From assembly GCA_902520595.1 (NCBI GenBank), contig CABYOM010000001.1:528-64527 (forward strand): a DNA stretch of 64,000 nt, written 5' to 3'. The stretch comes from an uncultured Candidatus Poseidoniales archaeon (GTDB lineage Archaea; Thermoplasmatota; Poseidoniia; Poseidoniales; Poseidoniaceae). Under the pieces are notes generated by a model, which worked only from the letters and a program-made list of their open reading frames with translations, was not told where the DNA came from and made no database searches. The position numbers and the translations under genes are program-made. Of the stretch, positions 28,326 through 53,000 are shown piece by piece. Positions within the stretch are counted from its first letter, which is position 1, and each line of letters starts with the position of its first letter.

Positions 28326-28356
28326 CAGGAACGGTTATTAGAATCCTGAAAGAGTG

Positions 28357-31062
28357 ATGTTTGTGGTCCGAATCATTCAGCCTGCTGGGAAATCAGGAGC
28401 TCCTCTCGTTCGAATCGGACTTCTGGAAAATGTTGAGGAAGTCATTCTGCTCTGCTCGCCTGAATCGATGAATGATGAAGAGTTCGAGCGTATACAATCG
28501 GTCGCCAAAGAACTTGGGTCGAAAGCCAAATACACTCGCGAAATTATTCCAATCCTCGGAGTTACAGTTCCTGAAATTCTCGACAGATTGACTGAGGTTA
28601 AAGAAAAAATTAATCACGGGAGAATCGATGCAAAAATGCAGCCAACTAATTTCCTAAAAAAAATTATCCACTTAAGAACCAAATTTTTTAACAAAAAAAA
28701 ATCCACTGGAAACAAGACACTTGTTTCGACAAATGGTAGCACCCTCTTATTCGGCAATTGTATTTTATCAGTGTTTTCGGAATGCGAAACACTTACCATG
28801 AATTGGAAAGATTCTACATATTTTTTGTCACGCGGTGTTACAAAAAAAATGCCACCTATGTCTGAGGACTTTGTTTGGAAAATATTTGGTCTTCAACACA
28901 GAATTAAAGAAGGCAAGAGTCAGATTCTATCGGATGGAAGAATCATTGCACAACCATCAAGCGTTTCGCTTCGAGGTGAAAAAATTTATTTCGAATGGGA
29001 TAATGAGCCTTCGGACAATTATGATGCAGCAGAGGGAGCGAAAATAATTGCAAGTGAAATGCGAGCATTGTGTAGAATAAATGCCCCAACAAAATATGAT
29101 TTTGTAGTCAGGGGTTCTACAAAGTTTGATTACTTTGACAGGTATACAATTAACACAAATAAACCAGTTCAACCAAACAGCATGTTCAAACCAGCATCAA
29201 ACGAATTTTTTTCAACTATTCAAATGCCCAAATTTCCGCATGGTAAAGCCGCTTCAAATACATCTTGTCTTCACATTATCGTCAATGAAAGAGACATTAC
29301 TCCAACTGCGTTTTCAATAATGTTACACAAGCCTGACCATGTCGTACTTTGGGTGCTAAATACTGCAATGAATGACCAAAAACGTGCAGAATTTGAAGGA
29401 AAAATAACTGTTTTGGTTCATTACTTGACTGGCGAAATTATTCCTAAACTCAAAGATGCCATCAAACCGGTGGGGAGTGGCAAGGCATCAGAATTTCTCG
29501 AACAAAACCCTCCACCTAAGATGGATATTGAGTTTCACATGGTCAGTCTCCAGGAACTAGGAGATTCACAAGTAATCTTGCCACAAATTCCACCAGTAGA
29601 GAAGATATTGGTGGAATTGAACTCAGGTTTTCTCGGACTTCAAGACCAAATGATGAAAACTTTATCCAATGCAAATACAGACTTTGAACGATGGATTACA
29701 GATTCTAACAAATTTGAAGCAGTCCGGATTTCGGATATTGGTGGGAAAATAAAGGGCGGAAATCACCCTAATTTATCGAGATTATTGTTGCGGAAAAGAA
29801 TACCATTTGGAGGAACTATACTTTCGAATAAAGAAGATTATCTCCGTAAATTAGGGATTGTGCTGCCTATTCTTCTCAAAAATAAGAGGTTCGAAAATGG
29901 CCTTTGGAGGCCAAAAGGTGGATTATTCGTTAATGAAAATGGGAATAATATTGAAGTGAAAGGCAAGAAGTTTCGTCCAAGATCAATAGTAATATCTTCA
30001 AACTCATATTTTGAAGTGAGACTCGACAATGAAGAGTACTTTTTGACCTTCGGAAAGAGTAACCATATGGTTGGAATATGGTTAGAAGAACTCGCTGCTT
30101 ACCTCATTCATTTCTATTGGAAAAGTCATTTTTCAGTGTATGGAATGGAATCCAAACTAATTGCAGGAAATTGGATGCTAGGTACCTCGGATGATGTTGA
30201 CATTTACTGTATTACAGATTTTGGTGAAGTCATTGGCGAGGCAAAGGCCATTTCTAGGCTAGATTCCTCGAGAATTTCACCAATAATTGGCCAACTTTCA
30301 GGTGAAACCTTTGTTGTAGGTACTCGACATGGGCAAATGCCTATGCTAGTTATTGCTACTGATTCGTCTCCATTCGACGAGATAGCTAATCGAGAAGGGG
30401 TCGTCATATGCAGTTGGTGGGAACTTCAGTATCCTGAACGAATCATGCATCGATTCAAAACTGGCAGACGTAGTGAAGAAGAGTTGGCCGAAATAGCGGC
30501 TTTGAATGTGAAAGTTGCTGCTGCTAAAGAAGAGGCTGAAAAGAAAGCAAAAAAAGAAGCTGAAAAGAAAGCAAAAAAAGAAGCTGAAAAGAAATTCAAA
30601 AGGCCTGCTTTCGTTCTCCCTTTGTTTTGGAAACATATGCCTGATCAAGCAAGCTTTTTGGAAAAACCCATCGAAGAACAGAAGAGGCTATCAAATGAAA
30701 ACAAGGAAGAACGCCGCAAAAACAAGGTATATTCGCCGGAAGTTCAACAAAATACTTTGTTTGCTGGAACTGTGAATTATAAACAGTTCAAACTACTCGA
30801 CGATGGCCCTAAAAAAACTATTTCTATTTCTGGAGTTGAAGAACTCAAGGAGGCTGTCATCGCAATCGCAAAACCAAAACATAAAACCCTATTTGGAAAG
30901 ACAGGCGATGCAGTTACAGAACGTGAAGAGGCGAATGGTTACGATATCCGAGTGGTTGATATCTCTCTAAAACCAGAAACTTTGGCTACTGATGAAAACA
31001 TTACAGCATACCTTCTCGACTGCTACCCAATTCTTTCAGAAGATGAAAAAGAAGAATCATGA
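28357..31062 (+). CDS. Two-CARF-like + PD-(D/E)xK nuclease protein (Can1/Can2/Card1-like) with K/E-repeat C-terminal tail
   Basis: Two Rossmann-like units resemble Card1/Can2 CARF domains. The first has 'VVRIIQPAGKSGAPL...VEEVILLCSPES...LVSTNGSTLLFG'; the second has 'CLHIIVNERDITP...DHVVLWVLNT...ILVELNSGFLGLQDQMM'. They are followed by 'GIWLEELAAYLIHFY...GTSDDVDIYCITDFGEVIGEAKA' (D...ExK). Motif-level call only. Confidence 0.5.
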   Translation: MFVVRIIQPAGKSGAPLVRIGLLENVEEVILLCSPESMNDEEFERIQSVAKELGSKAKYTREIIPILGVTVPEILDRLTEVKEKINHGRIDAKMQPTNFLKKIIHLRTKFFNKKKSTGNKTLVSTNGSTLLFGNCILSVFSECETLTMNWKDSTYFLSRGVTKKMPPMSEDFVWKIFGLQHRIKEGKSQILSDGRIIAQPSSVSLRGEKIYFEWDNEPSDNYDAAEGAKIIASEMRALCRINAPTKYDFVVRGSTKFDYFDRYTINTNKPVQPNSMFKPASNEFFSTIQMPKFPHGKAASNTSCLHIIVNERDITPTAFSIMLHKPDHVVLWVLNTAMNDQKRAEFEGKITVLVHYLTGEIIPKLKDAIKPVGSGKASEFLEQNPPPKMDIEFHMVSLQELGDSQVILPQIPPVEKILVELNSGFLGLQDQMMKTLSNANTDFERWITDSNKFEAVRISDIGGKIKGGNHPNLSRLLLRKRIPFGGTILSNKEDYLRKLGIVLPILLKNKRFENGLWRPKGGLFVNENGNNIEVKGKKFRPRSIVISSNSYFEVRLDNEEYFLTFGKSNHMVGIWLEELAAYLIHFYWKSHFSVYGMESKLIAGNWMLGTSDDVDIYCITDFGEVIGEAKAISRLDSSRISPIIGQLSGETFVVGTRHGQMPMLVIATDSSPFDEIANREGVVICSWWELQYPERIMHRFKTGRRSEEELAEIAALNVKVAAAKEEAEKKAKKEAEKKAKKEAEKKFKRPAFVLPLFWKHMPDQASFLEKPIEEQKRLSNENKEERRKNKVYSPEVQQNTLFAGTVNYKQFKLLDDGPKKTISISGVEELKEAVIAIAKPKHKTLFGKTGDAVTEREEANGYDIRVVDISLKPETLATDENITAYLLDCYPILSEDEKEES
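30532..30594 (+). repeat. In-frame 24-bp tandem repeat (about 2.6 copies) encoding (EAEKKAKK)n
   Basis: gaggctgaaaagaaagcaaaaaaa / gaagctgaaaagaaagcaaaaaaa / gaagctgaaaagaaa, read directly from the sequence. Confidence 0.9.
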
Positions 31063-31123: not shown

Positions 31124-33421
31124 TTGAACTCAGCAAAAACCGCATGCTGCTCACTTGAGCACCTTTTTGTAATAGATACCCAAGGACATTGTATGACTGC
31201 TCAGCCAACTGGTTCTCTCGACCCGTGGTGCAAAGATGGCAGCGAATGTAAACCCGAATGGGATGCAGAAAAAATGGGCCATGAACATCCTCTGGAATTT
31301 ATGGCGGAGTTACTGCAACAGTGGCCCACTGGTGCGCCAACTGTTGATTTAGAAGACGAAGAGCGTCACCTACGTTTCATCCAGATTGTAGCTGGTTATC
31401 CTGAAATCGGCAGAGGAATGTATCCTCTAGACTGGCCGACACACCCAATGTCTGTGAAGGCGCTTCAACTCTCATTATTTCTCGATAGTTTGGCTGTTCC
31501 TGAAGAATTAATTCAAAATCCTTCAATTAAAGCACATTCCGTTCGAAGTGCAATATTGGCTTTGGATGCTCGAAAATACGAATATGGAAAAAAAGGGAAA
31601 TTGGATAAAACCCAACTCCAGTTATTACATGGAGAATGTTTAAGTCTGCTTTTCAAAGTAATTCGAGTCTATGTGAATTGGGAATCAAGCATTGATGAAA
31701 ATGGGGATAAATCAGCTTCCCATTATGAACATTTATTTCTAAATAACTTACATTCTAGCCAAAAGAAGCGGCGAGAAGGATGGTGGTTCGATTCCAATTC
31801 GGAAAAGAAATTCAAACTAGATCTGGCCAAATCTGAACAAGTGAACAGAGAGCAACATACTCACCAAATTAAACTCGGTTCTATTCAAAAATGGATTCAA
31901 GAATGGTCAACAGAAAATTCAAAAAATTACCCATATGAAGAAAACACTCGTCACAACTTACTTATTGGCGCATCTGTGATGTTAGAGTGCTTATTCGCCA
32001 AAATCAGGCAACATATAATCACAGAATACCGGCCAGGATGCGTCATAATTGATGGAGGTGGTAGAATTGAATTTCTCACGAAGAACGGTGATGTAGAGAG
32101 CGAGATGAAGAAAGTAATTGAAAACTCATTTCTAATTTCAAAGAACCATCATCACCCGTTTCAAGATATTATTGAACGAACTTTGCGCGAATACGGGGAT
32201 GGAAGAATAAACAAACCTCAGTTTCCTTCAATAGAATGGGACACTGATACCAACCCTCCGAGACCTAAACGGTCTGCTTACGAAAGATTCATCGGAGATA
32301 AAAGAGCTATCGAATTCTTTCCCCCAATAAAGTACAACGGTGAAGATCTCTACGAAGAGACGGAAAAAGATCAATTTGGCTGTTCGTTGTGCTCCAATGA
32401 AGATGGCCCCCTCGAATCAATATCTAAATCTGTAAAAAAGGGTCAATTTAAAATTCAAGATGTTTGTTTTCTACATGCTCTTATGTTTCGAATTGGAGAG
32501 GCGCAGCAAAGGCGCGACTCAAGCATTCGGCGAAAAGGAAAGAGCATTCCAAAATCAGTGGGAATTCATTCATGTACATTTCTAGACCTCAATGCCCTCG
32601 GTTCAATGTTTGGCACTCCAATTTCAAATACTCAAAACATTATGGAAAAAATACTCCACTTTCACCATCAATCAAAGAAAGATGGTGTTTCACAAAAGCA
32701 TTTACTGGTGATAGAACAAAAACGTAAAAACAAAATTGGAATGCAAAACAAGGTTCGCCAAATGTTAGAAAATAACAACGTGATCACTCAATCAATACTT
32801 GATGAAGAAAATGATGAGAATTTCAAATTGTATATACTTGAAACTCAAGAGCAATTAAGTACTTTCAAAGCCCGTAAGTCTTTCAGGTTTAACTCAAAAT
32901 GGTGGAGTTCTATATCTCAAATAGTTGATACGGATTCAAAACATTTTGGTGAAATTGGAGCATGGGTTGCTGCAGGAGACGACCTTCTCCTTGTGCGAAG
33001 GGGAGTCATTGGAGAAGAAGATGAAACACTTCAACAACAACTGAATGAACTTGATAAATTATTGAAACTTGAATTTCCGAATTCAGCCATAAAATTCTCA
33101 TTTTGTGCAGGATTAACTAATAGAAAAAGTTCCAATGTTGAAGGTCAAAAATGGGAAAAGATACCCGATATGATTCAACGAGCAAGAAAGAAAGAAAAAC
33201 AAGCGAAAAATTATTGGAAAACGAGAGCTGATAAAAGCGACCGTGATGATTTAATCTCAGAGTATGACTCAATTAGTGGAAGTATTAAACGTAAAAAAGG
33301 CTGGAAATTGATGAGTGAATGGGTTCCAGAAGACGGGCCTGTTTATTCAATTCCTTCAGTGAGAGAAGGAGTACCAAGAGAAGAAGAAAGTATGATTTAT
33401 CATTCAAGCATCTATGATTGA
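31124..33421 (+). CDS. Cas10-like (mCpol/GGDD-type) palm-domain nucleotide cyclase, orphan
   Basis: The motif order matches Cas10: 'RHNLLIGASVMLECL...GCVIIDGGGRIEFL' (palm 1); 'CSLCSNEDG...VCFLHALMFRIGE' (Zn knuckle); 'CTFLDLNALGSMFG' (DxD/N-LG metal motif, D488 at 32585-32587); 'ARKSFRFNSKWW'; 'GAWVAAGDDLLLV' (GGDD equivalent, 32969-32983); 'FSFCAGLT'. The track start is TTG at 31124; the first ATG is at 31193. Confidence 0.55.
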   Translation: MNSAKTACCSLEHLFVIDTQGHCMTAQPTGSLDPWCKDGSECKPEWDAEKMGHEHPLEFMAELLQQWPTGAPTVDLEDEERHLRFIQIVAGYPEIGRGMYPLDWPTHPMSVKALQLSLFLDSLAVPEELIQNPSIKAHSVRSAILALDARKYEYGKKGKLDKTQLQLLHGECLSLLFKVIRVYVNWESSIDENGDKSASHYEHLFLNNLHSSQKKRREGWWFDSNSEKKFKLDLAKSEQVNREQHTHQIKLGSIQKWIQEWSTENSKNYPYEENTRHNLLIGASVMLECLFAKIRQHIITEYRPGCVIIDGGGRIEFLTKNGDVESEMKKVIENSFLISKNHHHPFQDIIERTLREYGDGRINKPQFPSIEWDTDTNPPRPKRSAYERFIGDKRAIEFFPPIKYNGEDLYEETEKDQFGCSLCSNEDGPLESISKSVKKGQFKIQDVCFLHALMFRIGEAQQRRDSSIRRKGKSIPKSVGIHSCTFLDLNALGSMFGTPISNTQNIMEKILHFHHQSKKDGVSQKHLLVIEQKRKNKIGMQNKVRQMLENNNVITQSILDEENDENFKLYILETQEQLSTFKARKSFRFNSKWWSSISQIVDTDSKHFGEIGAWVAAGDDLLLVRRGVIGEEDETLQQQLNELDKLLKLEFPNSAIKFSFCAGLTNRKSSNVEGQKWEKIPDMIQRARKKEKQAKNYWKTRADKSDRDDLISEYDSISGSIKRKKGWKLMSEWVPEDGPVYSIPSVREGVPREEESMIYHSSIYD

Positions 33422-33466
33422 AACAGAATGAACATTGAGAGGCGTTCAAGAACAATTGTGCTTTAA

Positions 33467-35131
33467 TCACGCATCTGCCATGGCCTTCTCATCAGAAAGA
33501 CCTTTGAGTTCGACTGGATTCAACTCGATGATTGGCTGTGTTTTTGGATGGATTTTCAAGGCGAATTTCACGGGTAATTCTTTTTTCAATCGGATCAATC
33601 GCTTGTTTTCAGCAACGAGCTCTTCATTCACTTTTTGCATGTCTTCAACTTTCTGAATGAGTTCATTGACACGTTGTTCGAGCGCTTCACGTGCCGCAGA
33701 TTCCTTCTTCAGTTCTGATCGAAGCAGACGAGTTGTGTCTTCAATTTTGCCACCCAACTTCATTTGCAATGCTGCTCGAGCAGTGGATTCTTCCTTTACT
33801 TTCGTCGAAACCTGACTGATTTCTCTCTCAAGTTGGTCATGTGCACGAGAGAATTTATCCTTGATCGAATCAAAACTCTTACGGATTTGTGGAACCTTCT
33901 TTGACAACATATCATCAAGCTCACGGCTCAACTTATCGATGGTCTGGAACCGTGCTTCGAGAATATCATCCTCGTCTCCAAGTGCCTTGCGATGACTGTA
34001 AAGCAATCCTGGCATAATAAATGGAATTTCTTCCTTTCCTTTTACATTCTGGAAATAGCGCATTCGTGTCAAGAATTTATTGTACCGTGCTTCAAGGTCT
34101 TCACTGAGTTTTACAACCGCATTTGCAGATTGAGCATCTTCATTTCGTGCGGCTTTTTCCGAGATAAAAACCCCGTGTTCTTTTCGGAGCGGGTCAACAA
34201 CAACAGCGACAAAACGGCCGTCTTGACGGTTTGAGCGAAGATGGCCAAAGGTGTTGATATCAATTCCTGACAAGAAAATACCGATGTCTGGGTGAGTGTG
34301 AATCCATCCGATAATCTGAATGTTTGGAGTATGAGGGCCGCCACATCGACTGTTGGCCATATCACAAGCATCCATTGCCATAGCGAGAGCTCCTCCGTCA
34401 AATTCACAATACCCTGGACTTGCTTCAGTTTGTTTTGGAAAGAAACCACAGGTAACGACATTATTTCCATTATGGTCAATATGTCCAATCAACAAGCCAC
34501 CCATCTCAAGACGGCCGCGTGGCTGAGTGAACACTGTCGTTTGGTCAATAATTTCCTGAGGCACCAATGCTGGGTGGTCTTTCACTCGAGCCGTTCGGCG
34601 GCCTCCACCCGGAATACGTTGTGGAACGACAAAGAACGAACGGCCAATCATATCGTTGGCCATAAGATTGGATACAACTTCTTGGTGGTTATCGCGCACT
34701 TCTAAAGGAGAACCATCGCGAGGTCGCAGACCTGCTCTTTCAACGACCTGCATTACCGTCTCGCCAGGTTGTGGATTGATGTTATGTCGTGAACCATCTT
34801 GCATGATGAGGGTCAAATGTGCTTGTTTATTCGGGATTTCGTCAAGATCGATACCTTCGTCCCAATCGTCATCAAATTCAATTCCAGCCCCACCTGCAAC
34901 TTTCGCAACACCGACGTAAATGGTCGAGTCGCGATGCGCGGCAGCATTGTTATTCGAAATGACTGAACCCATCGCGTCATAAATGTCGAACTGTCCTTTC
35001 GGTGCGAGTTTCATATCCTGAACAGCTTGCTTCAGGGTGGCATTCTGAGGTACTTCGACCCGTTGCTTTTGGGTTTGATCAAGGGTGTTGGCTACAGTCA
35101 GGGGTATCATTTGGTTTTGCATGTTTTTCAT
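33467..35131 (-). CDS. Ubl-Ubl-JAB/MPN(JAMM) metalloprotease with C-terminal coiled coil
   Basis: Two beta-grasp-like units end in 'VAKVAGG' and 'VVPQRIPGGG'. The JAMM motif is complete: 'LEMGGLLIG' ... 'IIGWIHTHPDIGIFLSGID' (E, HxH, S, D). The last ~200 aa are heptad-rich. The likely true start is the second ATG (35122). Confidence 0.8.
   Translation of the reverse strand: MKNMQNQMIPLTVANTLDQTQKQRVEVPQNATLKQAVQDMKLAPKGQFDIYDAMGSVISNNNAAAHRDSTIYVGVAKVAGGAGIEFDDDWDEGIDLDEIPNKQAHLTLIMQDGSRHNINPQPGETVMQVVERAGLRPRDGSPLEVRDNHQEVVSNLMANDMIGRSFFVVPQRIPGGGRRTARVKDHPALVPQEIIDQTTVFTQPRGRLEMGGLLIGHIDHNGNNVVTCGFFPKQTEASPGYCEFDGGALAMAMDACDMANSRCGGPHTPNIQIIGWIHTHPDIGIFLSGIDINTFGHLRSNRQDGRFVAVVVDPLRKEHGVFISEKAARNEDAQSANAVVKLSEDLEARYNKFLTRMRYFQNVKGKEEIPFIMPGLLYSHRKALGDEDDILEARFQTIDKLSRELDDMLSKKVPQIRKSFDSIKDKFSRAHDQLEREISQVSTKVKEESTARAALQMKLGGKIEDTTRLLRSELKKESAAREALEQRVNELIQKVEDMQKVNEELVAENKRLIRLKKELPVKFALKIHPKTQPIIELNPVELKGLSDEKAMADA
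34886..35122 (-). repeat. Copy A of a ~237-bp near-identical duplication (Ubl-coding 5' end)
   Basis: Aligns with 35621..35857 at a constant offset of 735. I see only two mismatches (34889 vs 35624, and the atcctg/atactg change giving D to Y). Confidence 0.9.
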
Positions 35132-35194
35132 CTCCGTTTTGGGTTTTCAATTACTAATTTTGTGAAGTGTTTCTTATTCTGTTAAATTTGACAT
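35132..35194 (-). promoter_or_regulatory. Leader cassette 1: palindromic TATA-like motif (35180-35193) + GGAG RBS
   Basis: Minus strand reads TAG-ATGTCAAATTTAACAGAATAAGAAACACTTCACAAAATTAGTAATTGAAAACCCAAAACGGAGATGAAAAACATG. About 85-90% identical to 36310-36369. Confidence 0.5.
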
Positions 35195-35857
35195 CTAGGC
35201 GTTCAATAGATTTTGAATGTGATTGATGTAAGCACCAATCCGGCGAATAGGGTCGTTTCCAATTTGATTCAGATGTGGTAGAATCTGGCCATGACAAATC
35301 CAATGGCTTGGTTTATTGGTTCCTGGAAGCGTATTGCTTGAGCCTACTCCGTAGGAAACACTTGGCGTATTTCCATTAAAGATGGAGACACTGGGTCGTC
35401 GCGTGATTTGGTCGTGGTTGAGCACATATGCGTGAGGTAAGCCAGATGATGCGTTTGGGCAATGAATGGCAATTTGCCAAAAACCGTTACTGGTTTTTCC
35501 TTTGGATGGAAACTGAAGAGAAATCATAGAGGTATGAGTTGCGTTGGTATGAATTCGAACTGGGCGAAGAGATGGATACTCAACTTTGAGTTCTGCCAAC
35601 CGTTCACGCGGGATGCCTGAAGCTCCACCTGCAACTTTCGCAACACCGACGTAAATGGTCGAGTCGCGATGCGCGGCAGCATTGTTATTCGAAATGACTG
35701 AACCCATCGCGTCATAAATGTCGAACTGTCCTTTCGGTGCGAGTTTCATATACTGAACAGCTTGCTTCAGGGTGGCATTCTGAGGTACTTCGACCCGTTG
35801 CTTTTGGGTTTGATCAAGGGTGTTGGCTACAGTCAGGGGTATCATTTGGTTTTGCAT
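35195..35857 (-). CDS. Ubl-E2 (UBC-like) fusion protein
   Basis: The N-terminal 79 aa are identical, bar one residue, to Ubl1 of the JAB protein and end in 'VAKVAGG'. The remainder follows a UBC pattern: 'RERLAELKVEY', 'FWQIAIHCPNASSGLPHAYVL', 'SHWICHGQIL' (candidate catalytic Cys) and 'IGAYINHIQNLL'. Confidence 0.6.
   Translation of the reverse strand: MQNQMIPLTVANTLDQTQKQRVEVPQNATLKQAVQYMKLAPKGQFDIYDAMGSVISNNNAAAHRDSTIYVGVAKVAGGASGIPRERLAELKVEYPSLRPVRIHTNATHTSMISLQFPSKGKTSNGFWQIAIHCPNASSGLPHAYVLNHDQITRRPSVSIFNGNTPSVSYGVGSSNTLPGTNKPSHWICHGQILPHLNQIGNDPIRRIGAYINHIQNLLNA
35621..35857 (-). repeat. Copy B of the ~237-bp near-identical duplication
   Basis: See copy A (34886..35122). Confidence 0.9.
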
Positions 35858-35877
35858 ATTTCCATCTCCATGGGATT

Positions 35878-35988: not shown

Positions 35989-36009
35989 CTCCATTTTTAC
36001 TTCATATCG

Positions 36010-37253: not shown

Positions 37254-37300
37254 TTGTTCACTTCCTTCATACAATGGCCTCAACCAGAAGATGAGTTTTC

Positions 37301-37314: not shown

Positions 37315-37318
37315 AAAG

Positions 37319-43568: not shown

Positions 43569-43572
43569 TTTA

Positions 43573-44127
43573 TCACCGGGTTCGAGCGCGATCATCGGGG
43601 TTTGGATTTTTCAATACATCCTCAATTTGATGCAACAAAAAACCTAATTTTTCCTTCTCTGTTTGATAGGTTGCAAATTGTTCAGAAAACCCTGGGCCCA
43701 TACACACCCCACATATTTCTCTTTGAGGAAGAATGTTGTATCTCCCTTTTTCAAAGATATTCTCGTGTAAAATATTCTCACACTTTGGTGTCAAAATGAA
43801 TACCTGTGGCGCTTCTGAAAAGGAACGTGAATCAATAAGAATTTGATAGTTCATCGCGGTGTAATCTCGGCTTGAGACAACACCCTGAAGATTGACAACA
43901 AAAGCTCCTACTGTGGTTTTTGAACTGTGGTCACGAATTAGATTAAGCGAAGGGTAAGAAGTTAATTTAAAACTATCAAACACTGCTTTCGATAAACTCG
44001 AACCCGAACGAACTCGAAGAGGGACAAGGTACTCATTCCGACTGTTTTCTCGGCTTCGCTCTGCCTCAGATGCTCTACGCAGAAAATCGCCATTGCCATT
44101 AAAAATTCCATATTCTTCATTATCCAT
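43573..44127 (-). CDS. UBC-fold E2-like ubiquitin-conjugating enzyme
   Basis: 'NYQILIDSRSFSEAPQVFILTPKCENILHENIFEKGRYNILPQREICGVCMG...LGFLLHQIEDVLKNPNPDD' follows the E2 core pattern: Y.i.i...P.v.f, H(P)N(I), a catalytic Cys, and ..LL..PNPDD. The track start is a GTG at 44136. Confidence 0.7.
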   Translation of the reverse strand: MDNEEYGIFNGNGDFLRRASEAERSRENSRNEYLVPLRVRSGSSLSKAVFDSFKLTSYPSLNLIRDHSSKTTVGAFVVNLQGVVSSRDYTAMNYQILIDSRSFSEAPQVFILTPKCENILHENIFEKGRYNILPQREICGVCMGPGFSEQFATYQTEKEKLGFLLHQIEDVLKNPNPDDRARTR

Positions 44128-44170
44128 ATTCTTCACTTCACTTTTTTGATTTCTTGAAACCGTTTCATAT

Positions 44171-44184
44171 CATTAAATTTGACA
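44171..44184 (-). promoter_or_regulatory. Palindromic TATA-like motif copy (TGTCAAATTTAATG)
   Basis: Overlaps the stop of the 369-aa gene, 43 nt upstream of the ATG at 44127. Confidence 0.4.
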
Positions 44185-45282
44185 AGAGGGGTGAGTTCTT
44201 GGCACACCTTCAATTATCAACATACGCTTATTCGACGCATTGCGTGATATCCTAGCCACGGCCCATTGCCCCTTGGGATCAACCGAGATTCCAGGTTTCA
44301 AAGCGTAAGACATCTTAAGAGGGGAGTTTGGATGATGAATATTGTACAATTGGATAGGTTCCTCTGACTCAGGAACCTTGACAAAGACATAATGCCCATC
44401 TTGGTAATACGGTCGATTCACTAATGCAGGAGAGTTTTTCCGAGCGAAACGGACGAGGACTCCCTCACAAGATGCCCCTTTTTTCGGAGTGTTTCCTGAG
44501 ATGAGAGCACGTTGCCAACCGCCCGAGGGTTGGAGAACACTGCCTTTGAAGATACTTTGATTCTCTTTCGCTACCGAAGGAATCTTCATTTTACATGGAA
44601 CTGGTTTAATCTTCATTTTGTTGTATTTCTTGCCTATTTTGGGTTGATTGTTGTGCGGTTTGAAGCTAGATGGAACTGGTGTTAGGTCTGGACGGAAGAC
44701 CACGGTTTTACTTGCCTCCGCGTTACGAATTTCGCAGCATCCCCAAAATCCTCGAATACGTTCAATATCGGCGCATTGATAATTCACTTTGATATCTTCT
44801 TGTCCTGTTTGAGGATTGAATAGCGATACTGTATTTCCTTTTCTTGGCGCTTGTGCAAAGACGATGTCTCCGTCTAGATACGGTTCTCCTTCAGTTCGAA
44901 AACGGTACGCATAGGTACCATTTTTTTGATTACGAGGCGTGATGAATACATTGATGTAATCTCCAACCTCAATTCCTGGAATGATAAGTTTGGTTCCATC
45001 CAAGCATTCAGTTCCTGTAAAAGGGCCTTTCAAATTTGTTTCGCCCCAAATTGATTCTACGCGCTTCAACATCCCCAAATGGATCGTAGTCGGTGCTTTT
45101 CCTACGAGTTGATGGTTCAGTGAGTTTCCATGTTTATCCATAGCATACCTCAAACTACCATCTCGAGGTAAAAGGCCAGATTGACTCATTGCCTCATATA
45201 CAGTTGAAGTTTCATCCACGAGAACACGTGTTGAAAGGGTCTCATTTGAATCAAGAATAAACCTCACTTCTCGTAGAGACAT
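44173..45282 (-). CDS. Ubl-domain protein with beta-rich repeat region (possible substrate adaptor)
   Basis: The N-terminal ~75 aa are beta-grasp-like and similar to Ubl2 of the JAB protein ('GLLPRDGSLRYAMDKHGNSL' vs 'GLRPRDGSPLEVRDNHQEVV'), with no terminal GG. The rest is unrecognised. Confidence 0.5.
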   Translation of the reverse strand: MSLREVRFILDSNETLSTRVLVDETSTVYEAMSQSGLLPRDGSLRYAMDKHGNSLNHQLVGKAPTTIHLGMLKRVESIWGETNLKGPFTGTECLDGTKLIIPGIEVGDYINVFITPRNQKNGTYAYRFRTEGEPYLDGDIVFAQAPRKGNTVSLFNPQTGQEDIKVNYQCADIERIRGFWGCCEIRNAEASKTVVFRPDLTPVPSSFKPHNNQPKIGKKYNKMKIKPVPCKMKIPSVAKENQSIFKGSVLQPSGGWQRALISGNTPKKGASCEGVLVRFARKNSPALVNRPYYQDGHYVFVKVPESEEPIQLYNIHHPNSPLKMSYALKPGISVDPKGQWAVARISRNASNKRMLIIEGVPRTHPSCQI

Positions 45283-45375: not shown

Positions 45376-47046
45376 ATGCAATTATGCCTCGTAGAATTTT
45401 CTCGTCCCAACAAAGATTCTGGCGAGTACTTTTCAGTAGATTTTACCGACGCAGTATCCAATCACGAAGTTGATGAAATCATTCTTTTCCAATCGACAGA
45501 CCACGTTTGCAATGAACTTAGAGAGGAGTTGGAAGCGAAATTCCCACAAGCAACCATCCGCCTTGAACAACTTGAACCAATTTCAACTGACATGATCATG
45601 CATGAGATGATGCAGCTGCCATGGAATTTATTGCGACAGATTCTTTCAAAACTTGACGAAAGTCAAGACTCTCTATTTGTTCTCGGTCGTGGCACAAGTC
45701 TGCATCAGCATGTCATGTGGCTAACTGCTGAAATTCGAGGAAGCAAGATTATTTCCATCGATGAGCCGAATGTTGAACTCTTTCATGTTGGCTCTTCAAG
45801 AATAAATACAGAGATCGCTAAAGCAACCCTTGGGGCGTTCGTTCGTCTGCATGTTCAGGAAATCAATGAAAACATTACTGGTAAAAATGGCTGGTTCAGT
45901 GCGAATGATATTTCAAAGTTGCCTGGTGCTGTTGCCTCAGGAATAAACGCAGCAACACAACTGGCCTTGAAAGAAGGGTATTTGCTTAAAGAAGACACAA
46001 CATCCGGTAATACAGTGTACAAATTAACTCCAAAAGGCTGGACTCTGTCCCTAAAAAATTACATTGAATCGAAAGGTGTTGAAGATGAAGGTTTGAAGGA
46101 GATTTTGATTTCTTTCGCCCGACTCCCAAAAATAGCGTCTGCAGTAGGTCACAATGCACGACCACCACTCCTTACCTCGCAAATTTCTGCTGCGGGCATT
46201 CACGATGGTTTACTGGTCGTTCTTCAAAAAATAGATGATTCAATTGAGGGGTCGCACGTAATGACACTGGATGAAGCGTGTGATTTTTTCACAGAGCCAG
46301 AACTTGTTGGGGATCTGAGGGCCGCACAAGAAATACTACGGCAAAGGTGTGTTTACGATTGTGTTGATGTGAAAAATCACTTGGTCGTCATTAATCCCGT
46401 CTATGGAGAAGATTTTCAATTGCTCTTCTCAAAACATCTTCTTGCTGTTCTTGAAGATTTTGAAAAGCAATACGGCCGCCATCACTGGAATTTTGACATT
46501 ACAAGTCCAGTGAATCAGATTAAGCCTGCCGTTTCATCTTTCTCAAACGTTACGAAAGCCTCAACATGCTACATTCTCAAGTCTAAAGGTGAAAAAGGAG
46601 CAGTAATAGAAAAAGTCGAACTCTCTCGACACCCTCGCTATTCCCACAAACTGTCTGTTCCAAACTGGGGAGCCCTTGAGATAATGAATACAAAAATCGC
46701 TTCTGGGTATCGGAATGTTCTAGTTGCACTCATGCTCCTCGAAAATGTAAATTCCAAGAAATCATCAAACAGCCTTCCGTTTGACGATGTGGAAGAAGAA
46801 AATTTTGATGGCGTGGAGTGGTCTGAAATTGTTACTTTTGTTCAAGATTTGAAAAGCCCATATGACCTCAAGAAAGGAATCATCACTGGAAGCTCAACTC
46901 GAATGAAAAAACTCATTCAATCAAAACTTGTTCGTCGTAATGTCGCTGATGAAGGGTCTTCAGTTCACCGCTTTTCACTCACCAATGAAGGCTACCTTGT
47001 AGCAAGTCAACTGTATGGCGACATTAGCCGGGAGGGGATGGCGTGA
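45376..47046 (+). CDS. Tandem CARF-like + winged-helix regulator (Csa3-like architecture, duplicated)
   Basis: The N-terminal Rossmann-like unit has 'VDEIILFQSTD' and 'LFVLGRGTSLHQHVMWLTAEI' (the GGT-type CARF loop). wHTH-like stretches are 'EGYLLKEDTTSGNTVYKLTPKGW' and 'KLVRRNVADEGSSVHRFSLTNEGY'. A second Rossmann-like unit lies between them. Confidence 0.4.
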   Translation: MQLCLVEFSRPNKDSGEYFSVDFTDAVSNHEVDEIILFQSTDHVCNELREELEAKFPQATIRLEQLEPISTDMIMHEMMQLPWNLLRQILSKLDESQDSLFVLGRGTSLHQHVMWLTAEIRGSKIISIDEPNVELFHVGSSRINTEIAKATLGAFVRLHVQEINENITGKNGWFSANDISKLPGAVASGINAATQLALKEGYLLKEDTTSGNTVYKLTPKGWTLSLKNYIESKGVEDEGLKEILISFARLPKIASAVGHNARPPLLTSQISAAGIHDGLLVVLQKIDDSIEGSHVMTLDEACDFFTEPELVGDLRAAQEILRQRCVYDCVDVKNHLVVINPVYGEDFQLLFSKHLLAVLEDFEKQYGRHHWNFDITSPVNQIKPAVSSFSNVTKASTCYILKSKGEKGAVIEKVELSRHPRYSHKLSVPNWGALEIMNTKIASGYRNVLVALMLLENVNSKKSSNSLPFDDVEEENFDGVEWSEIVTFVQDLKSPYDLKKGIITGSSTRMKKLIQSKLVRRNVADEGSSVHRFSLTNEGYLVASQLYGDISREGMA

Positions 47047-48236
47047 CTGAAGAAGGCGAGTTTACTGTTGAAGATTTGCGTAAATTCCACGAACAAGAAG
47101 GTGAAGAGCCAAGTCTTGTCTGCCCCCACTGCGGCCCTATTTTTACATTAATTGATGAAGTTGAAGAGATGCGTCTAAGAGGGTTTGTAAAACACCAAAC
47201 TTCTCAATCAGATGAAGTGTATATTCTCGCTAAATTTGGGATATGTGGCGGAAAACACGACGGCATAGAGAACATTTCGCCCTATGGGGTCCCACTCATA
47301 CGCGAAGACGATTATAATCCAACGATTCCAAGGGCGCAACCCACTCCTGAAGAGCTCGCAGAGTTTGACCAGGAATATGATGCACCAGCGTGGGTACCAC
47401 AACCAAGTAATGAGACAAAGAATCATACCAAAACAAGTGCATCTACCGCGTTAGGCGATTATTTGTATGAATTGGATCCTCCCTACGTTATTGAACAATT
47501 CATTTCGGCTTGGCAAGAAGAAGAACATAACGAAAATCTCGATAAACAGAATGCTGCAAATGAGTGGTTCGATTGTTTATGGCCATTCATTAAAGACACA
47601 TTGGACGTCAAGGAAGGAGCCACGATTAAAGAAAACCTACTTGTCACAGTCTACCTTCATAAAACCGCTGTAATGAGGCATATAGAGCCGCTCTGGATGT
47701 TCTGGAAAAGGTTTGGTATGGGAAAAAGAGCACTCGAAAGGGCGTTGTTATCATTTCCTGCTGATTTACCAAGTCACTTCCAAGACCTTTTCACGATTAT
47801 TGAACGTGATTATGAGCCTGAGCGCTCGACCATCGAATCACTTGTCAACACCCTTGTTCGCAATAAAATATGTCCTGCGATGAGTGGTTCAGAAATGCAA
47901 GCCTTCATCCAAAATGCGACGGATTTCCTTGGAAAAATGAAACAAGCACCCTACGGTAATGTGAGTTGTTATGAATTTTTGACTTTAGAATCTCTTATTG
48001 CAGATTCCATGGCTCTTGGCGGTCAAACGCTGCCCCATGCTGGAATCATTGAACTTGTCTGTGTCTATGCAACCATGAGGCAAAAAAGCAGTTCTGCTGA
48101 TGGGTTCTTGCGGACAGTTTTCCCCAGTGAGGCTGACCCTCTCTGGAAGGCTGTTCTCTCACAACACGGAGCAAAAATCGGAATCGAACGAATGATTAAC
48201 AACTTGATAACTCATATCGAAACACATACACAATAG
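47043..48236 (+). CDS. Hypothetical protein with N-terminal Zn-ribbon-like motif
   Basis: 397 aa. The GTGA overlap with the upstream stop suggests coupling. 'CPHCG...CGGKH', then a helical region. No family recognised. Confidence 0.5.
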   Translation: MTEEGEFTVEDLRKFHEQEGEEPSLVCPHCGPIFTLIDEVEEMRLRGFVKHQTSQSDEVYILAKFGICGGKHDGIENISPYGVPLIREDDYNPTIPRAQPTPEELAEFDQEYDAPAWVPQPSNETKNHTKTSASTALGDYLYELDPPYVIEQFISAWQEEEHNENLDKQNAANEWFDCLWPFIKDTLDVKEGATIKENLLVTVYLHKTAVMRHIEPLWMFWKRFGMGKRALERALLSFPADLPSHFQDLFTIIERDYEPERSTIESLVNTLVRNKICPAMSGSEMQAFIQNATDFLGKMKQAPYGNVSCYEFLTLESLIADSMALGGQTLPHAGIIELVCVYATMRQKSSSADGFLRTVFPSEADPLWKAVLSQHGAKIGIERMINNLITHIETHTQ

Positions 48237-48256: not shown

Positions 48257-50038
48257 ATGATCGACCGAAAAAACAAGTCTGACATCGATCGAGCCAGGGA
48301 GGTGATGTTCAACCGAGAGGCCCCTACTTTCACTTGCAATTCTATTCCTGTAGGCAATCAACTTCACATAGTGAACTCTTTCAGTGAAGTTTCTCCATTG
48401 CATACAACAGATGCAAATGAATCACTTCCGGCAGTGAATATTCAGTTTTTGTCAAGCACTAATTCGGTCGAAATGAAAGGAATAATTGACCGTGGGAAAA
48501 AAATCGGCTTTCTTCTAATTTTCATAAACTGGCCAGGGAACGAAGAGAATCTTCAAAACGCATTCAAAGAAATCATCAAACAGAAAGTACCTTTGGGTCA
48601 AAACAATCAAAACCAAAATATTGAAATAAATACGCACTCTATCCGTAAAGGTGATTTCCAAAAGAAAATGTTGATCTTAGATAGTATTACTGAGAGCACA
48701 TCTGGAATATTTATTTTTGATTTTGACACCGGGATAGAAGGTCATTCCAAACGTCTCGAAAAAATCGGAGATTTTGCTTTAGATGTGGATTTTAATATCA
48801 GCGACCTACGTAAAAAAGTTCAGGAAGTCAAAGGAAAAGAAAAAGTAATTCTCGGTCTTTTCTCCAACTTAGTGCAAGCTAAAGTCGTTACAAATGAATT
48901 TCTCCTCAGGAACTTTATTACACTTGACGATAATTGCTTTTCAACACTAATTTTACCTGCTTCATATTTTCCTGGCGAATTTAATATGTATTTTGAACTT
49001 GCAGGAGTCATACAATCGATAATTAATTTTCTTACAACCACCCAAGATTATCGCAAAGGTATTATCGATGCCCAAAATGAAATTTTTCTAAGATGTATTG
49101 AAAATAAATTGCCGCAGAACGAAGCAACAGCAATTGCATGTAGCATCTATTTTGGACTTGAATCTCACAACATTTTGTCCAATAATAAAATTACTGTAAC
49201 TCCAACATCTGAAGACCTTCCATCTACGGGAATACATGATATTGATGGCGCCATTGAGAATGTAGAAAAATTTGCATTTGATGAATGTCAAAAGATAGAA
49301 AAGCAGATTAATCATGCGGTTTACTCATCTCTACGGAGCATAAATATACTATCAAATCAATTAAACGATTACCACAAACTTCTGTTCTCAGTTGTCGTTG
49401 GCGCTCAAAGTTCAATTTGGGAAAACCCTCAAGCGAGAAAGAAACTCAAGAATGAGGACAGAATTAAGGAAATGTGGAAATCTTTTTGTTCAGGAACAGC
49501 CCAATCTCTTATTGGCAAACAGACATACGGTGAAAACACGACTGAGGGGCAGATTCTGTATGCATTCGGTAAAAGCATTAAGCAGATTCAGCAGAATCGT
49601 GGCAAAGGGTCTTCTTTAATTTATCAAATTATTACTGAGGGACAAGACGATGTAGAAGACCCACTTGATACTCTTGAAAGATTAAAACTTAACATGAAAA
49701 GCAGTGAACATAACTTTGGGGCTGCTGTAAAGCCTCAAATACATCCAATTAACCTAATTCTGGACGAACAAATTTTGAAGTATTTGCACGTTCTATATCT
49801 CAAATGTAAGAGTATTACTCATACGCCTGAAATCTTAAAACAAGCCCCTGTTGGTAACGAGTTTGAATTTTTGTTTGTATCTTCGAAAGAAAAAAATCAC
49901 ATTAATAAGAGTGATTTGAAAACTATTCTGACTAACTTAAAAGATGCAGTTCAAGTATACTATCCCGGTGGTCTTTCATATGCGACAAGTACGCCAATGT
50001 TTAGAGAGACATCTTTGCAATGGTGGGTAGGTGATTAA
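48257..50038 (+). CDS. Hypothetical protein
   Basis: 593-aa N/K/I-rich ORF in tight operon spacing. No family recognised. Confidence 0.5.
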   Translation: MIDRKNKSDIDRAREVMFNREAPTFTCNSIPVGNQLHIVNSFSEVSPLHTTDANESLPAVNIQFLSSTNSVEMKGIIDRGKKIGFLLIFINWPGNEENLQNAFKEIIKQKVPLGQNNQNQNIEINTHSIRKGDFQKKMLILDSITESTSGIFIFDFDTGIEGHSKRLEKIGDFALDVDFNISDLRKKVQEVKGKEKVILGLFSNLVQAKVVTNEFLLRNFITLDDNCFSTLILPASYFPGEFNMYFELAGVIQSIINFLTTTQDYRKGIIDAQNEIFLRCIENKLPQNEATAIACSIYFGLESHNILSNNKITVTPTSEDLPSTGIHDIDGAIENVEKFAFDECQKIEKQINHAVYSSLRSINILSNQLNDYHKLLFSVVVGAQSSIWENPQARKKLKNEDRIKEMWKSFCSGTAQSLIGKQTYGENTTEGQILYAFGKSIKQIQQNRGKGSSLIYQIITEGQDDVEDPLDTLERLKLNMKSSEHNFGAAVKPQIHPINLILDEQILKYLHVLYLKCKSITHTPEILKQAPVGNEFEFLFVSSKEKNHINKSDLKTILTNLKDAVQVYYPGGLSYATSTPMFRETSLQWWVGD

Positions 50039-53000
50039 ATTGCAAAACAAATACCAACTTCGGGAACTTGCCCATGAGAACTTAAAACCGTCCAATAAAG
50101 AGTTTGTTCCTCGAAGTGCATTTGATAAACATAAAAGTGGAGAGGTATTTGTAAACCCGTTACTTGCCCATTATGACAAATTCTGGGATGTTGAAGAAAG
50201 ATCTTTTTCCTTTATGCAAACTATGTGCAATGTACTAAAAGGCCCTATAGAATATGAAAAACAAAAAGCAATCGATGCCACACAATATCTGCTACTCGGC
50301 AAACCATCTTCTGGGAAAACCACTGAATTAAGACGAATTTCTCATGAAATACTTGGTCAAATTAATGATGATCAAATCATCCACCTTTGCAGCCTTCAAA
50401 ATACTTCAGCAGTTCAGCGAGAAATCGAATCAAAAGAGGATTTATGGAATTGGATGATGAGAAGCCATGAATCAAAGGTTTGGGCTGAAAAGAGATATTC
50501 TTTGGAACAATTCTCTCAACTACATCTAGAAAATAACTTGAAACCAATACTCTTAGTCGATACCGTCGATCTTCTCATTTACGGAAAAATTGGAACAGAA
50601 AGCAGCATGAAAATCACCGAGTTTTGGAAAGAACTTGTATCGGATATAGAATTACTTGGTTGGACAGTTCTGTGGAGTTGTAGAACATATGAATGGAATT
50701 TGATGAAAGAACATAATTCTGCAGATAGAATTAATCTCATTGAAGTATCTCTTCCAATCTTGAATGAGAAAGAAATTACTCAAAGGCTTGAAAGTATTCC
50801 TACCGCGGATTATTTGCAAAGGCACATGGTTACACTTTCATGGGCATTTCCAATTGTAATAGGCCACTACATTAATTACAGACAAAAATTTGACTGGGCA
50901 CCAATCATCGAAAATTTTCGTGAATTACATTATGAAATGCGAAGAACGAGTTGCGATGAGGTAATAGTGGCTAACAATGCTGGACCTGTAACTTGGATTG
51001 CTAGAGAATTGAACGAGGAAATAGCTACAGACATATTGTATAAAGGAATCAGAAGCGCAATAATTGATTACATTGTGAAGGTGTACCATTATGGTTTGGA
51101 AAAAGTGGAAAATCGGTGGGAGGAGATTGAAAAGGAATTTTACTCTGCTGCAAGACCAAAATCAAGTGTATCCCGTATACAAATTGATGCTTCTTACTTA
51201 GAAGATTACGATGACAAAACCCTTACTGAGGCCTTGATTAAAAGAGCCGTAGGTTTCGGAATATTAAACAAGAATGGCGAAACCTTAGAGATGACTCACC
51301 AACTATTTGCTGAGTATTGTGTTTGGATACACAAGAGAGAAACAGACCGAGAATTAATGAAAAAATTCCCCTCAACCATATTTAGAAGTGAGTTAAAAGA
51401 CGCTGACCAAGCAGTTTTGAATGAAGGTAGAGATTGGTTCCTCCCCTATATCCTGTTTAACATGGATTTAGCTAAATTCCCAGACCTTCCTTCCTTCGAA
51501 AAATCAACAACACATGCATGGAAACAATTGGCAGACTTTGCTCGACATGAACAAAAATCAGAATTACCAAAAACTAAGGCCAAGCACATCGAGAACCACA
51601 ATGTTCCGTTTAATCATTCACGATTGATAAATAAGGAAAAAGAACAATTGTTAGATAATTTAAACAGTACTTTTCCTCTAATCATTAACGGTCCACCAGG
51701 AGTTGGCAAATCTCACCTTTCGTATATCTGGATAGATAAGATGGCTTTAGGTTTGGACTGGGAGCAACTTTTACCCGATAAAAAGAGGCAGATTTTTGTT
51801 GCAGACATTAATGCTTTACCTACCGCCTATTTTATGACTCAAAGTCAAAGGTTAGCCAGTCAAATCTCTGATAAAATCGATGAATATTATGGGGTAGACA
51901 CACGGCCGGTTAAATTTGAAAATTGGGGCGTGAGTGAATATCTCGCTGATTTAGAAAAGTTACTTGGAATTGAAAGTGAAACTTTTTCGTTCGAAGATTT
52001 TGAAAAAGAATGGAAAGAATATTCAAAAGGAAATAATTCGAGAGGTATAGCCGATCTGAATAAAATGTCCATCCAAGCACTGTGGAATGAGTATTTGCAT
52101 AATGTTATCGATAATCAAGGCGATCGCAAAGATTTTGAAAAATACAGAAAGTCAATAGACCACATTTTCAAGTATTGTAAACACCCTGTTGACGCTAAAC
52201 AAGTGTTTGGGAAATGGGCAATTGAAAGACGTAAACGTAGCCCTAAACTCTCTCTTTCTGAGCAAGCTGGCCAGTGTATCAAGCATGTTCTTCCCATATT
52301 AGCTAACGGAAGTTTAGAACAGCGAGAATTGATACATACCATGCAACCAGATATTCTCGTTCTTGATGAAATACAGGATTTGCCTGCGCCGGTAATCTTG
52401 CTGATGCTCATTATGCACAAAGGTGAGACAAACACTGTAATGATGTGCGGAGATGATGAACAAACTCTCGAGTTAATTCAATTCAACTGGAGCACAGTAT
52501 TTAAACACATATCTGTTGCCATACATGAGCTCTATGAAAGTTATAAAGAAGATTCAGAGAGCATAATTTTTATTGAAAAATGGGTAAATATACAAGATCA
52601 ATCACTCAACAAAATCCAAGAAAAAAACACTAGTTCCCTGAAAATGGTTGAGCGAAGTATTCCTGAAATTGTAGATGTATTAAGTCAATCATGGCGTACA
52701 AGTGTCACCTCTCTTGAAGTGCCAGATGAAATTAAAATTAATCGAAACAAAGGAACTGGTGCCATAATAGCTGGACAGTTCTCCATTGATCGCGAAAATC
52801 GAAACGAAGAGAACGACATCGATCAAGGTGTTGAATATTATGAAGTTAAGAATACAGATTGGTTCGAAAAAGTAGCAACTGAAATCTATGAGCAGGCTTT
52901 AGATGTAGCGATTCTTCTTCCCGATCTGACCCAGTGGGAGAGGTATAAACAACTTCTCGAGGAATGGGATATCAACATTGAAATTTGGACTCCTCGTAAG

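Follow-up and report, generated by a model that had tools for sequence, protein, structure and literature searches.

A CRISPR-free Cas10-like gene beside a CARF nuclease gene and a ubiquitin-like operon suggests a new kind of antiviral alarm

Results

A Cas10-like gene between a CARF nuclease gene and a ubiquitin-like operon

We analyzed 64,000 nucleotides (nt) of DNA from an uncultured Candidatus Poseidoniales archaeon (GenBank assembly GCA_902520595.1, contig CABYOM010000001.1, positions 528 to 64,527), hereafter called the window. At its center lies a plus-strand gene for a Cas10-like protein of 742 amino acids (aa). It is preceded by a gene for a CARF nuclease and followed, on the opposite strand, by an operon with putative ubiquitin-like (Ubl), JAB, E1 and CDC48 components. 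A first-pass annotation, made from the DNA letters, had described a stand-alone Cas10-type protein of 765 aa with two palm domains, a zinc knuckle and AGDD in the place of GGDD. The open frame (31124-33421) was confirmed, and 765 codons are counted from TTG 31124. The probable start is ATG 31193, in agreement with the database copy P0001 and with the N-termini of homologues, and the likely gene is shorter (31193-33421). In this numbering D488 and D619/D620 of the annotation become D465 and D596/D597. All strings quoted in the annotation, namely LLIGASVMLECL, IIDGGGRIEFL, CSLCSNEDG...VCFLH, FLDLNALGSMFG, ARKSFRFNSKWW, GAWVAAGDDLLLV and FCAGLT, are contained in the translation. The gene and its domains are:

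31193..33421, plus strand: Cas10-like gene, 742 aa from ATG; the open frame reaches upstream to TTG 31124
31193..31852, plus strand: N-terminal all-helical domain, aa 1-220 (DSSP secondary structure of the model, conservation string)
31853..32227, plus strand: palm 1, aa ~221-345; beta-hairpin with the DGGGR motif at nt 32051-32065
32381..32476, plus strand: zinc knuckle CxxC...CxxH (C397, C400, C425, H428) (alignment, weak Csm1_B matches)
32555..33157, plus strand: palm 2, aa ~455-655 (alignment, model, hhalign to Csm1)
33158..33421, plus strand: C-terminal helix (E668..AK..W675-K676) and short beta-rich tail with conserved S733 (alignment, model)

A family alignment of 58 sequences had a mean column identity of 22%, and only 32 of its columns were invariant. 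These included G288-G290 in palm 1, where D287 and R291 were kept in at least 90% of the members, and C397 and H428 in the zinc knuckle, where the same holds for C400 and C425. All four residues that define the first strand of palm 2 (D465-x-N467-x-x-G470-x-x-F473, nt 32585-32611) were invariant, as were R561, F566, N567, W570 and W571. Palm 2 further contains a helical insertion of ~100 aa and the AGDD hairpin (nt 32972-32983), which is followed by an SFxAG strand. AGDD (A594, G595, D596, D597) was invariant across the alignment, the first Gly of GGDD being replaced by Ala in every member. Since the quoted motifs are among only 32 invariant columns at such low mean identity, we conclude that they are, as judged from the alignment, under purifying selection and not a chance resemblance.

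The best-conserved part of the family is the N-terminal helical domain (WP, RHLR, AGYPE, PLDWP, LD, SLRS, LHS). No HD dyad was conserved within these 220 aa and none of the 58 members had an HD Pfam match, in line with the first-pass annotation, which had seen no convincing HD domain. After palm 2, the AlphaFold2 (AF2) model shows one helix and short strands, and no long helical D4-like domain was predicted. One branch of the family, found in same-strand operons (see below), has a further domain of 70-125 aa at the C-terminus, marked by a conserved LRRHY motif and a VVLPPKK-type end (loci L052, L054, L056, L061, L063, L064, L066, L068, L069 and L010). The 70-90 aa C-terminal extension of same-strand-operon members was considered as a Ubl domain and rejected, as hhalign showed no relation to the putative Ubl segment.

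Fold and profile comparisons relate the protein to Cas10

The AF2 model, built on the family alignment, reached a predicted local distance difference test score (pLDDT) of 82 and a predicted template modeling score (pTM) of 0.88. Foldseek comparison against the PDB returned Cas10 chains at all of ranks 1-27 (Csm1 from several type III-A complexes, Cmr2 and III-D Cas10), with E-values from 8e-5 to 2e-2, a probability of ~1.0 and near full-length alignments. Pfam scans of single members matched Cas10-Cmr2_palm2 in 14/58 (best 4.5e-4) and Csm1_B in 13/58 (best 2.3e-4). All of these matches were below the gathering score; unrelated families recurred in at most three members, and a weak mCpol match was seen in one of the 58. 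Profile-profile comparison by hhalign with a Csm1 alignment of 38 sequences, seeded with Thermus thermophilus Csm1, gave a probability of 78% and an E-value of 1.9e-5. It paired VAAGDDLLLV with YSGGDDLFLL, SFxAG with TLSGG, and the E..AK helix with AEKRAK; the N-terminal region was left unaligned. Against single sequences the hhalign probability was ~1%, yet the correct motif was aligned. Read side by side, the motifs are colinear with those of Thermus Csm1:

Palm 1 hairpin: GAGGKF in Thermus Csm1, DGGGRIEF in the Cas10-like protein
Cysteine motif, same place: CxxC...CxxC in Thermus Csm1, CxxC...CxxH in the Cas10-like protein
D-x-(D/N)-x-x-G-x-x-F, same spacing: LMLDADRMGEAF in Thermus Csm1, TFLDLNALGSMF in the Cas10-like protein

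The positions of this last motif are invariant in both the family and the Csm1 alignments, and D465 corresponds to D550 of Thermus Csm1. Searches with sequences or single profiles did not bridge this distance. A phmmer search of the protein against the PDB gave no usable match, the family profile found neither Csm1 nor Cmr2 of Thermus by hmmsearch, and its sole match among PDB sequences, a zinc knuckle, was judged to be chance. A profile search of 1.84 billion representative proteins found 209 relatives and did not reach canonical Cas10. The family is small, with about 200 representatives.

The evidence from fold, weak profile matches and profile-profile alignment agrees that the protein is a diverged, full-length member of the two-palm Cas10 structural family, and the structural and profile comparisons bear out this part of the first-pass annotation. 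We file it as Cas10-like and not as Cas10, because there is no HD domain, no RAMP gene or array and no above-threshold score, and because a D4 domain is uncertain.

CRISPR components are absent from the window and from related loci

No CRISPR array was detected in the window by Tandem Repeats Finder (TRF), by a direct-repeat search or by Rfam. Pfam and NCBIfam scans of 45 open reading frames (ORFs) of the window, nearly all of those of at least 150 aa, gave no Cas or RAMP families. We further collected 83 related loci with flanks of up to 10 kb on each side and used profiles of the window genes to annotate them. No RAMP gene was detectable in any of them, and no array was found by a k-mer array detector, which in a positive control detected the arrays of Thermus plasmid pTT27. 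Recurrent neighbors in these loci (the 927-aa, 312-aa, 550/397-aa and 531-aa proteins) were considered as RAMP or Cas proteins and gave no matches to such families. The absence of array and RAMP partners reported for the 64-kb window thus extends to the 83 related loci.

The gene directly upstream encodes a CARF nuclease

The Cas10-like gene had been labeled an orphan in the first-pass annotation. This label does not hold, since the gene directly upstream had been overlooked:

28354..31062, plus strand: CARF and PD-(D/E)xK nuclease protein, 902 aa (PADLOC, AF2 model, Foldseek)

PADLOC matched the 902-aa protein weakly to CARF_PDDEXK (7.9e-6), and its AF2 model had a pLDDT of 74. Foldseek related this model to Can2 (8bao, 2.7e-11; 7bdv), VC1899 (1xmx), Cdn1, Card1 (6xl1) and also 9u49, with E-values from 2.7e-11 to ~1e-6 and template modeling (TM) scores, relative to the target, of 0.5-0.6. 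The next matches were CARF-only (Csm6, Cam1 and ring nucleases). The protein is an internal pseudo-dimer, with CARF in its N-terminal half and CARF-nuclease in its C-terminal half, and the PD-(D/E)xK motif D616...E-x-K631 is conserved. Because of the PADLOC match and the Foldseek matches to Can2, VC1899, Cdn1 and Card1 we assign it, on the basis of the model, to the class of CARF and PD-(D/E)xK proteins that receive cyclic oligoadenylate in type III systems. Presumably, it is this protein that receives the nucleotide signal.

Iterative searches revealed that the two halves are homologous to separate genes, of ~330 aa and 470-670 aa, that elsewhere lie directly downstream of Cas10-like genes. 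By homology, the 902-aa protein of the window is a fusion of that gene pair. With a Can2/Card1-like nuclease, the expected receiver, directly upstream and with the homologous halves accompanying the family in other loci, the Cas10-like gene is not functionally an orphan. Within the nuclease gene a 24-nt tandem repeat (30526-30594; 2.9 copies, 95% matches) codes for AEKKAKKE repeats in a long predicted helix.

A convergent operon encodes putative ubiquitin-like proteins, JAB, two E1-like proteins and CDC48

On the minus strand the following genes converge on the Cas10-like gene:

33467..35131, minus strand: JAB protein, 554 aa (Pfam JAB 6.5e-7; PDB sequence matches)
35195..35857, minus strand: 220-aa protein with a putative Ubl N-terminus and a C-terminal domain akin to the 187-aa protein
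38245-39813, minus strand: E1-like ThiF protein (NCBIfam ThiF/MoeB/UbaA)
39798-41987, minus strand: CDC48-type double AAA+ ATPase (NCBIfam CDC48 1.6e-148)
42024-43595, minus strand: second E1-like ThiF protein (NCBIfam ThiF/MoeB/UbaA)
43573..45282, minus strand: 187-aa (43573-44136) and 369-aa proteins, fold unassigned, closing the operon

The 554-aa protein consists of two N-terminal segments that end in GG (putative Ubl), a JAB/MPN+ isopeptidase domain of the Rpn11/CSN5/AMSH type (PDB sequence matches down to 4.8e-8) and a coiled-coil tail. Its gene is separated from the Cas10-like gene by a gap of 45 bp (33422-33466), and in three related loci (L003, L039, L040) the two genes share 16 bp at their 3' ends, which leaves little space for separate terminators. 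The first ~80 aa of the 220-aa protein are nearly identical to the N-terminus of the JAB protein, and its putative Ubl segment ends in VAGGA. At the DNA level this similarity appears as a 241-nt direct repeat, 99% identical, at the 5' ends of both genes (34886-35126 and 35621-35861), which looks as if a putative Ubl cassette had recently been duplicated or undergone gene conversion. We had guessed by eye that the 187-aa and 220-aa proteins might be E2 enzymes; Pfam, PADLOC and PDB searches did not support this.

The two E1-like paralogues flank the CDC48 gene, are 24% identical to each other and each carry an N-terminal extension of ~230 aa. This arrangement recalls heterodimeric eukaryotic E1s and the pairing of ubiquitin with CDC48, and the same order follows Cas10-like genes in six related loci (L003, L007, L011, L027, L044, L079). 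Between the 220-aa gene and the first E1 gene (36010-37984) lie genes for three small proteins, none of which had a family match: one of 99 aa is very acidic, one of 80 aa contains many Cys residues, and one of 221 aa is Cys-rich at its N-terminus and hydrophobic in its C-terminal half. A leader cassette of ~50-80 nt is repeated before minus-strand genes (35118-35198, 35972-36021, 36293-36373, 36596-36645, and also at the gene start at 44136). The products behind it (the JAB protein, the acidic 99-aa, the Cys-rich 80-aa and the 187-aa proteins) all begin with MKNM, and the cassette may be a shared promoter and translation-start unit.

Conserved neighborhoods of the Cas10-like family

Homologues and their neighborhoods had been singled out in the first-pass annotation as something to tabulate, and among the 83 related loci we found four recurrent contexts. 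Dereplication at 90% identity left 64 clusters, 17 of them with at least 2 kb on both sides. Of these 17 well-flanked loci, 14 had a JAB gene no more than 10 kb from the Cas10-like gene, 11 a CARF or nuclease gene, 10 both and 2 neither.

The majority show the context of the window. Here the Cas10-like gene converges on JAB, followed by the putative Ubl fusion, E1, CDC48, a second E1 and small proteins; optionally, the fused CARF nuclease lies upstream or a gene for a 927-aa protein is inserted before JAB. The inserted gene, absent from the window, encodes a protein with thrombospondin-type-3-like repeats (~927 aa, NCBIfam MtsC 5e-14) and lies between the Cas10-like and JAB genes in 16 loci (in L001 at 12202-14985).

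In a second context all genes lie on one strand. The clearest order was seen in L066, with E1 (554-2209), a putative Ubl gene (2255-3178), JAB (3188-4324), the Cas10-like gene (4433-6961), the CARF half (6977-7969) and the nuclease (7973-9479), separated by gaps of 3-108 bp. In L068 the JAB and Cas10-like genes overlap by 4 bp. Across lineages JAB stays adjacent to the Cas10-like gene down to ~25% identity, while the flank on the far side varies.

The remaining two contexts hold short forms of the Cas10-like protein. In helicase islands (L002 and L060, also L051 and L058) a form of ~650 aa follows a small Smr protein. These islands also contain a radical SAM enzyme and a thymidylate-kinase-like protein (a viperin-like pair), a 1800-aa MZB helicase, a phospholipase D (PLD) nuclease, a DEAD helicase and GmrSD, and no CARF or JAB gene was found within 10 kb. 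In the large-NTPase context the short form is followed by a gene for a protein of ~520 aa (514-532 aa) and then by a STAND/helicase gene of ~2000 aa.

The surrounding island and the host

All four matches in GTDB species-representative genomes were Candidatus Poseidoniales (Marine Group II archaea), and the window contains genes for archaeal Spt5, archaeal Pus10 and a ribosomal protein L10 of the archaeal type. Two further gene groups lie beyond the minus-strand operon:

45376..48236, plus strand: 556-aa and 397-aa proteins, function unassigned (homologues near Cas10-like genes)
48257..56180, plus strand: 593-aa protein and 2049-aa STAND/AAA and helicase protein (50031-56180); low GC content, 0.35-0.37

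In L057, L061 and L063 a gene for a homologue of the 556-aa protein, with a gene for a ~400-aa protein behind it, is found directly upstream of the Cas10-like gene; in L002, homologues of both proteins occur ~4 kb upstream. In L049, L050 and L074 a homologue of the 2049-aa protein is encoded after the short-form Cas10-like gene. The 593-aa protein showed no similarity to the 514-532 aa gene product encoded after short Cas10-like genes; it is uncertain that the 593-aa and 2049-aa genes are part of the same system. The GC content of the window falls at 28-34 kb, all four plus-strand genes of 45376-56180 are located in low-GC DNA (down to 0.35), and the whole region between 28 and 56 kb resembles a single composite defense island.

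Discussion

A CRISPR-independent cyclase as the favored explanation

We favor, with a probability of roughly 0.6, a CRISPR-independent Cas10-family cyclase that signals to a CARF nuclease and is probably controlled by the Ubl module, as in type II cyclic oligonucleotide-based antiphage signaling systems (CBASS). The Cas10-like enzyme would operate without a CRISPR RNA (crRNA) complex and, most likely, would use the pocket that lies between its two palms to condense ATP to cyclic oligoadenylate. The neighboring Can1/Can2/Card1-like CARF and PD-(D/E)xK nuclease would bind this product and then degrade nucleic acid, by which viral infection would be stopped. The convergent operon, with its putative Ubl-JAB protein, putative Ubl fusion, two E1s and CDC48, probably belongs to the same archaeal defense system. 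By analogy to Cap2 and Cap3 of type II CBASS it would probably set or reset the activity of the cyclase or of its partners. Direct results of the analysis are the relationship of the fold, the invariance of the catalytic-type residues, the lack of CRISPR parts, the CARF-nuclease fold of the upstream neighbor and the conservation of the gene neighborhoods. We infer cyclase activity, the identity of the product, activation of the nuclease rather than its inhibition, and whatever role Ubl conjugation may have.

The first-pass annotation had named the adjacent Ubl machinery as an obvious candidate for an activator. The part of this proposal that stands is a conserved gene neighborhood, with JAB within 10 kb in 14/17 loci and some same-strand operons, and its support is confined to that. 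Control by conjugation and deconjugation is suggested because the linkage to E1, JAB, putative Ubl and CDC48 genes is recurrent and includes those operons. The pathway in its entirety, that is, a complete Cas10-type cyclase of archaea that is free of a guide, is switched by Ubl conjugation and deconjugation (two E1s, JAB, CDC48), signals to a CARF nuclease in antiviral defense and forms a Cas10-based counterpart of type II CBASS, is a tentative proposal that we regard as plausible and still doubtful.

Several results weigh against the favored explanation. Pfam, PADLOC, NCBIfam and PDB searches with the Cas10-like protein or the family profile gave nothing above threshold, and the hhalign match to Csm1 spans just 64 columns. 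Global TM-scores of the Foldseek matches to Cas10 chains are low (0.25-0.34), which is expected since the protein is flexible and has several domains. Family members in the helicase-island and STAND-helicase contexts have no CARF or JAB gene within 10 kb, and consequently a CARF receiver is not universal. Furthermore, the JAB operon is on the opposite strand in most loci. Given this orientation, and given that all loci may belong to a single archaeal order, inherited synteny at a defense-island site could account for part of the adjacency. Finally, the Ubl and E2 folds are putative, and the E2 searches gave no support.

Comparison with known systems

Cas10 (Csm1/Cmr2) is the best structural match and shares with the Cas10-like protein the palm 1 GG(K/R) hairpin, the CxxC zinc knuckle and the palm 2 motifs D-x-(D/N)-x-x-G-x-x-F and xGDD in identical order; an adjoining CARF nuclease is likewise found in many type III loci. 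In contrast, the Cas10-like locus has JAB, E1 and CDC48 partners instead of crRNA complex genes and an array. The protein differs by the absence of an HD motif and, as far as the model shows, of a D4-like domain, by AGDD for GGDD and by the ~100-aa helical insertion in palm 2, and its sequence similarity stays under every curated threshold (Pfam, NCBIfam). The HD nuclease domain is present in many, though not all, Cas10 proteins, and the D4 domain contacts the small subunits.

The type I and II mCpol/Panoptes systems, with a 2TM-beta or CARF-TM effector, also combine a CRISPR-independent Cas10-family cyclase with a nucleotide-binding effector in a defense locus. However, mCpol has one palm, is homodimeric and constitutively active, and signals in an inhibitory manner (PMC12657230, PMC12657218, PMC13577387), whereas the Cas10-like protein (742 aa) is a pseudo-dimer with two palms and has, in addition, a zinc knuckle and a further N-terminal domain; its locus holds a Can2-like nuclease effector and ubiquitin-like machinery. 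Type II CBASS (CD-NTase, Cap2 E1-E2, Cap3 JAB and effector) is the closest analogy for a possible control of the system, with a cyclase, an E1-type enzyme, JAB and a nuclease effector in one locus. Here the differences are the cyclase fold, which is a Cas10 palm and not a Pol-beta NTase, the archaeal host, and the presence of separate putative Ubl domains, two E1 paralogues and CDC48, with no verified E2. The 902-aa protein has the CARF and PD-(D/E)xK nuclease domains of Can1, Can2, Card1 and Cdn1, and its tandem layout resembles monomeric Can1. Unlike these, it lies outside a CRISPR locus, contains a long helix rich in Lys and Glu as well as an additional domain at the C-terminus, and is split into two genes in other loci. 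Our literature search, of incomplete coverage, returned no Cas10 homologue tied to Ubl, JAB or CDC48 genes, nor any in Poseidoniales.

Alternative explanations

The Cas10-like gene and the CARF nuclease gene might be a self-contained two-gene system, with an unrelated Ubl/CDC48 operon that shares its insertion site in a defense island. Such an accident of location would fit the convergent orientation in most loci, the variable insertions on either side (the CARF fusion present or absent, the 927-aa gene between the Cas10-like gene and JAB in 16 loci), the family members that have no JAB within 10 kb, and the drop in GC content at 28-34 kb. Yet a diverged branch holds E1, the putative Ubl gene, JAB, the Cas10-like gene and CARF/nuclease genes in tight same-strand operons, JAB adjacency persists to ~25% identity while the opposite flank changes, and in three loci the JAB and Cas10-like genes share 16 bp at their 3' ends. 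We consider this explanation a serious competitor, but not a probable one. The other possibility that concerns the wiring of the system is a guard, in which a constitutively made nucleotide holds the CARF nuclease off until a viral sponge or ring nuclease removes the signal and frees it. This logic is known for mCpol, the only characterized CRISPR-free Cas10 relatives, including a version with a CARF effector (PMC12657230, PMC12657218, PMC13577387), and no obvious sensor partner of the cyclase was identified in our analysis. The structures closest to the neighbor (Can2, Card1, Cdn1) nevertheless include activated or ligand-bound entries, such as 'cA4-activated Card1', and the protein has two palms as in Cas10, not one as in mCpol, with the weak mCpol match confined to 1/58 members. 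Nucleases of the Can2/Card1/Cdn1 type are switched on by cyclic tetra-adenylate (cA4). A guard is in our view unlikely.

Two further explanations question the protein itself. Its palms might carry out other chemistry, such as synthesis of another nucleotide conjugate or template-independent polymerization, or have a structural role only, while the CARF neighbor answers to something else. The Ala that replaces the first Gly of GGDD in all members, and the members in radical SAM/helicase contexts that have no CARF gene nearby, could be read in this way. However, the invariant hairpin with two Asp residues, the Asp of strand 1 and the GG(K/R) hairpin of palm 1 are the requirements of an active Cas10-type pocket, and the CARF nuclease is a recurrent partner, which makes a different function quite improbable. 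Even less credible is that the protein serves as the large subunit in a type III CRISPR-Cas system that is degenerate or split, with its RAMP subunits and array encoded elsewhere in the genome. The Cas10 architecture, including the zinc knuckle, is indeed kept, and the 64 kb examined are only part of the genome; but 0/84 loci (up to 10 kb per flank) contained an array or a detectable RAMP gene, no D4-like helical domain was predicted after palm 2, and the small family remained unconnected to canonical Cas10 among 1.84 billion representatives.

Significance

To our knowledge, the cyclase activity of Cas10 is understood only as licensed by target RNA binding in a crRNA complex, and we know of no CRISPR-free Cas10 relatives other than the one-palm mCpol enzymes. 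If the favored explanation is true, a guide-free two-palm Cas10 homologue that has kept its catalytic residues and has a Can2-like partner shows that cyclic-oligoadenylate immunity can use another trigger. With their recurrent linkage, the E1, JAB, putative Ubl and CDC48 genes offer a concrete and testable candidate for this trigger, and guide-independent control of a Cas10 cyclase becomes directly accessible to experiment.

The antiviral defenses of Marine Group II archaea are, as far as we know, poorly known. In these organisms the system would join three immune themes: type III CRISPR signaling, Ubl priming as in CBASS, and a ubiquitin/CDC48 machinery that resembles that of eukaryotes. It is also relevant to the proposed origin of type III effectors from a Cas10-CARF signaling pair, and the Cas10-like system could be a surviving relative of the guide-independent signaling module proposed as their ancestor. 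A CRISPR-free Cas10-like gene beside a CARF nuclease gene and a Ubl operon suggests a new kind of antiviral alarm.

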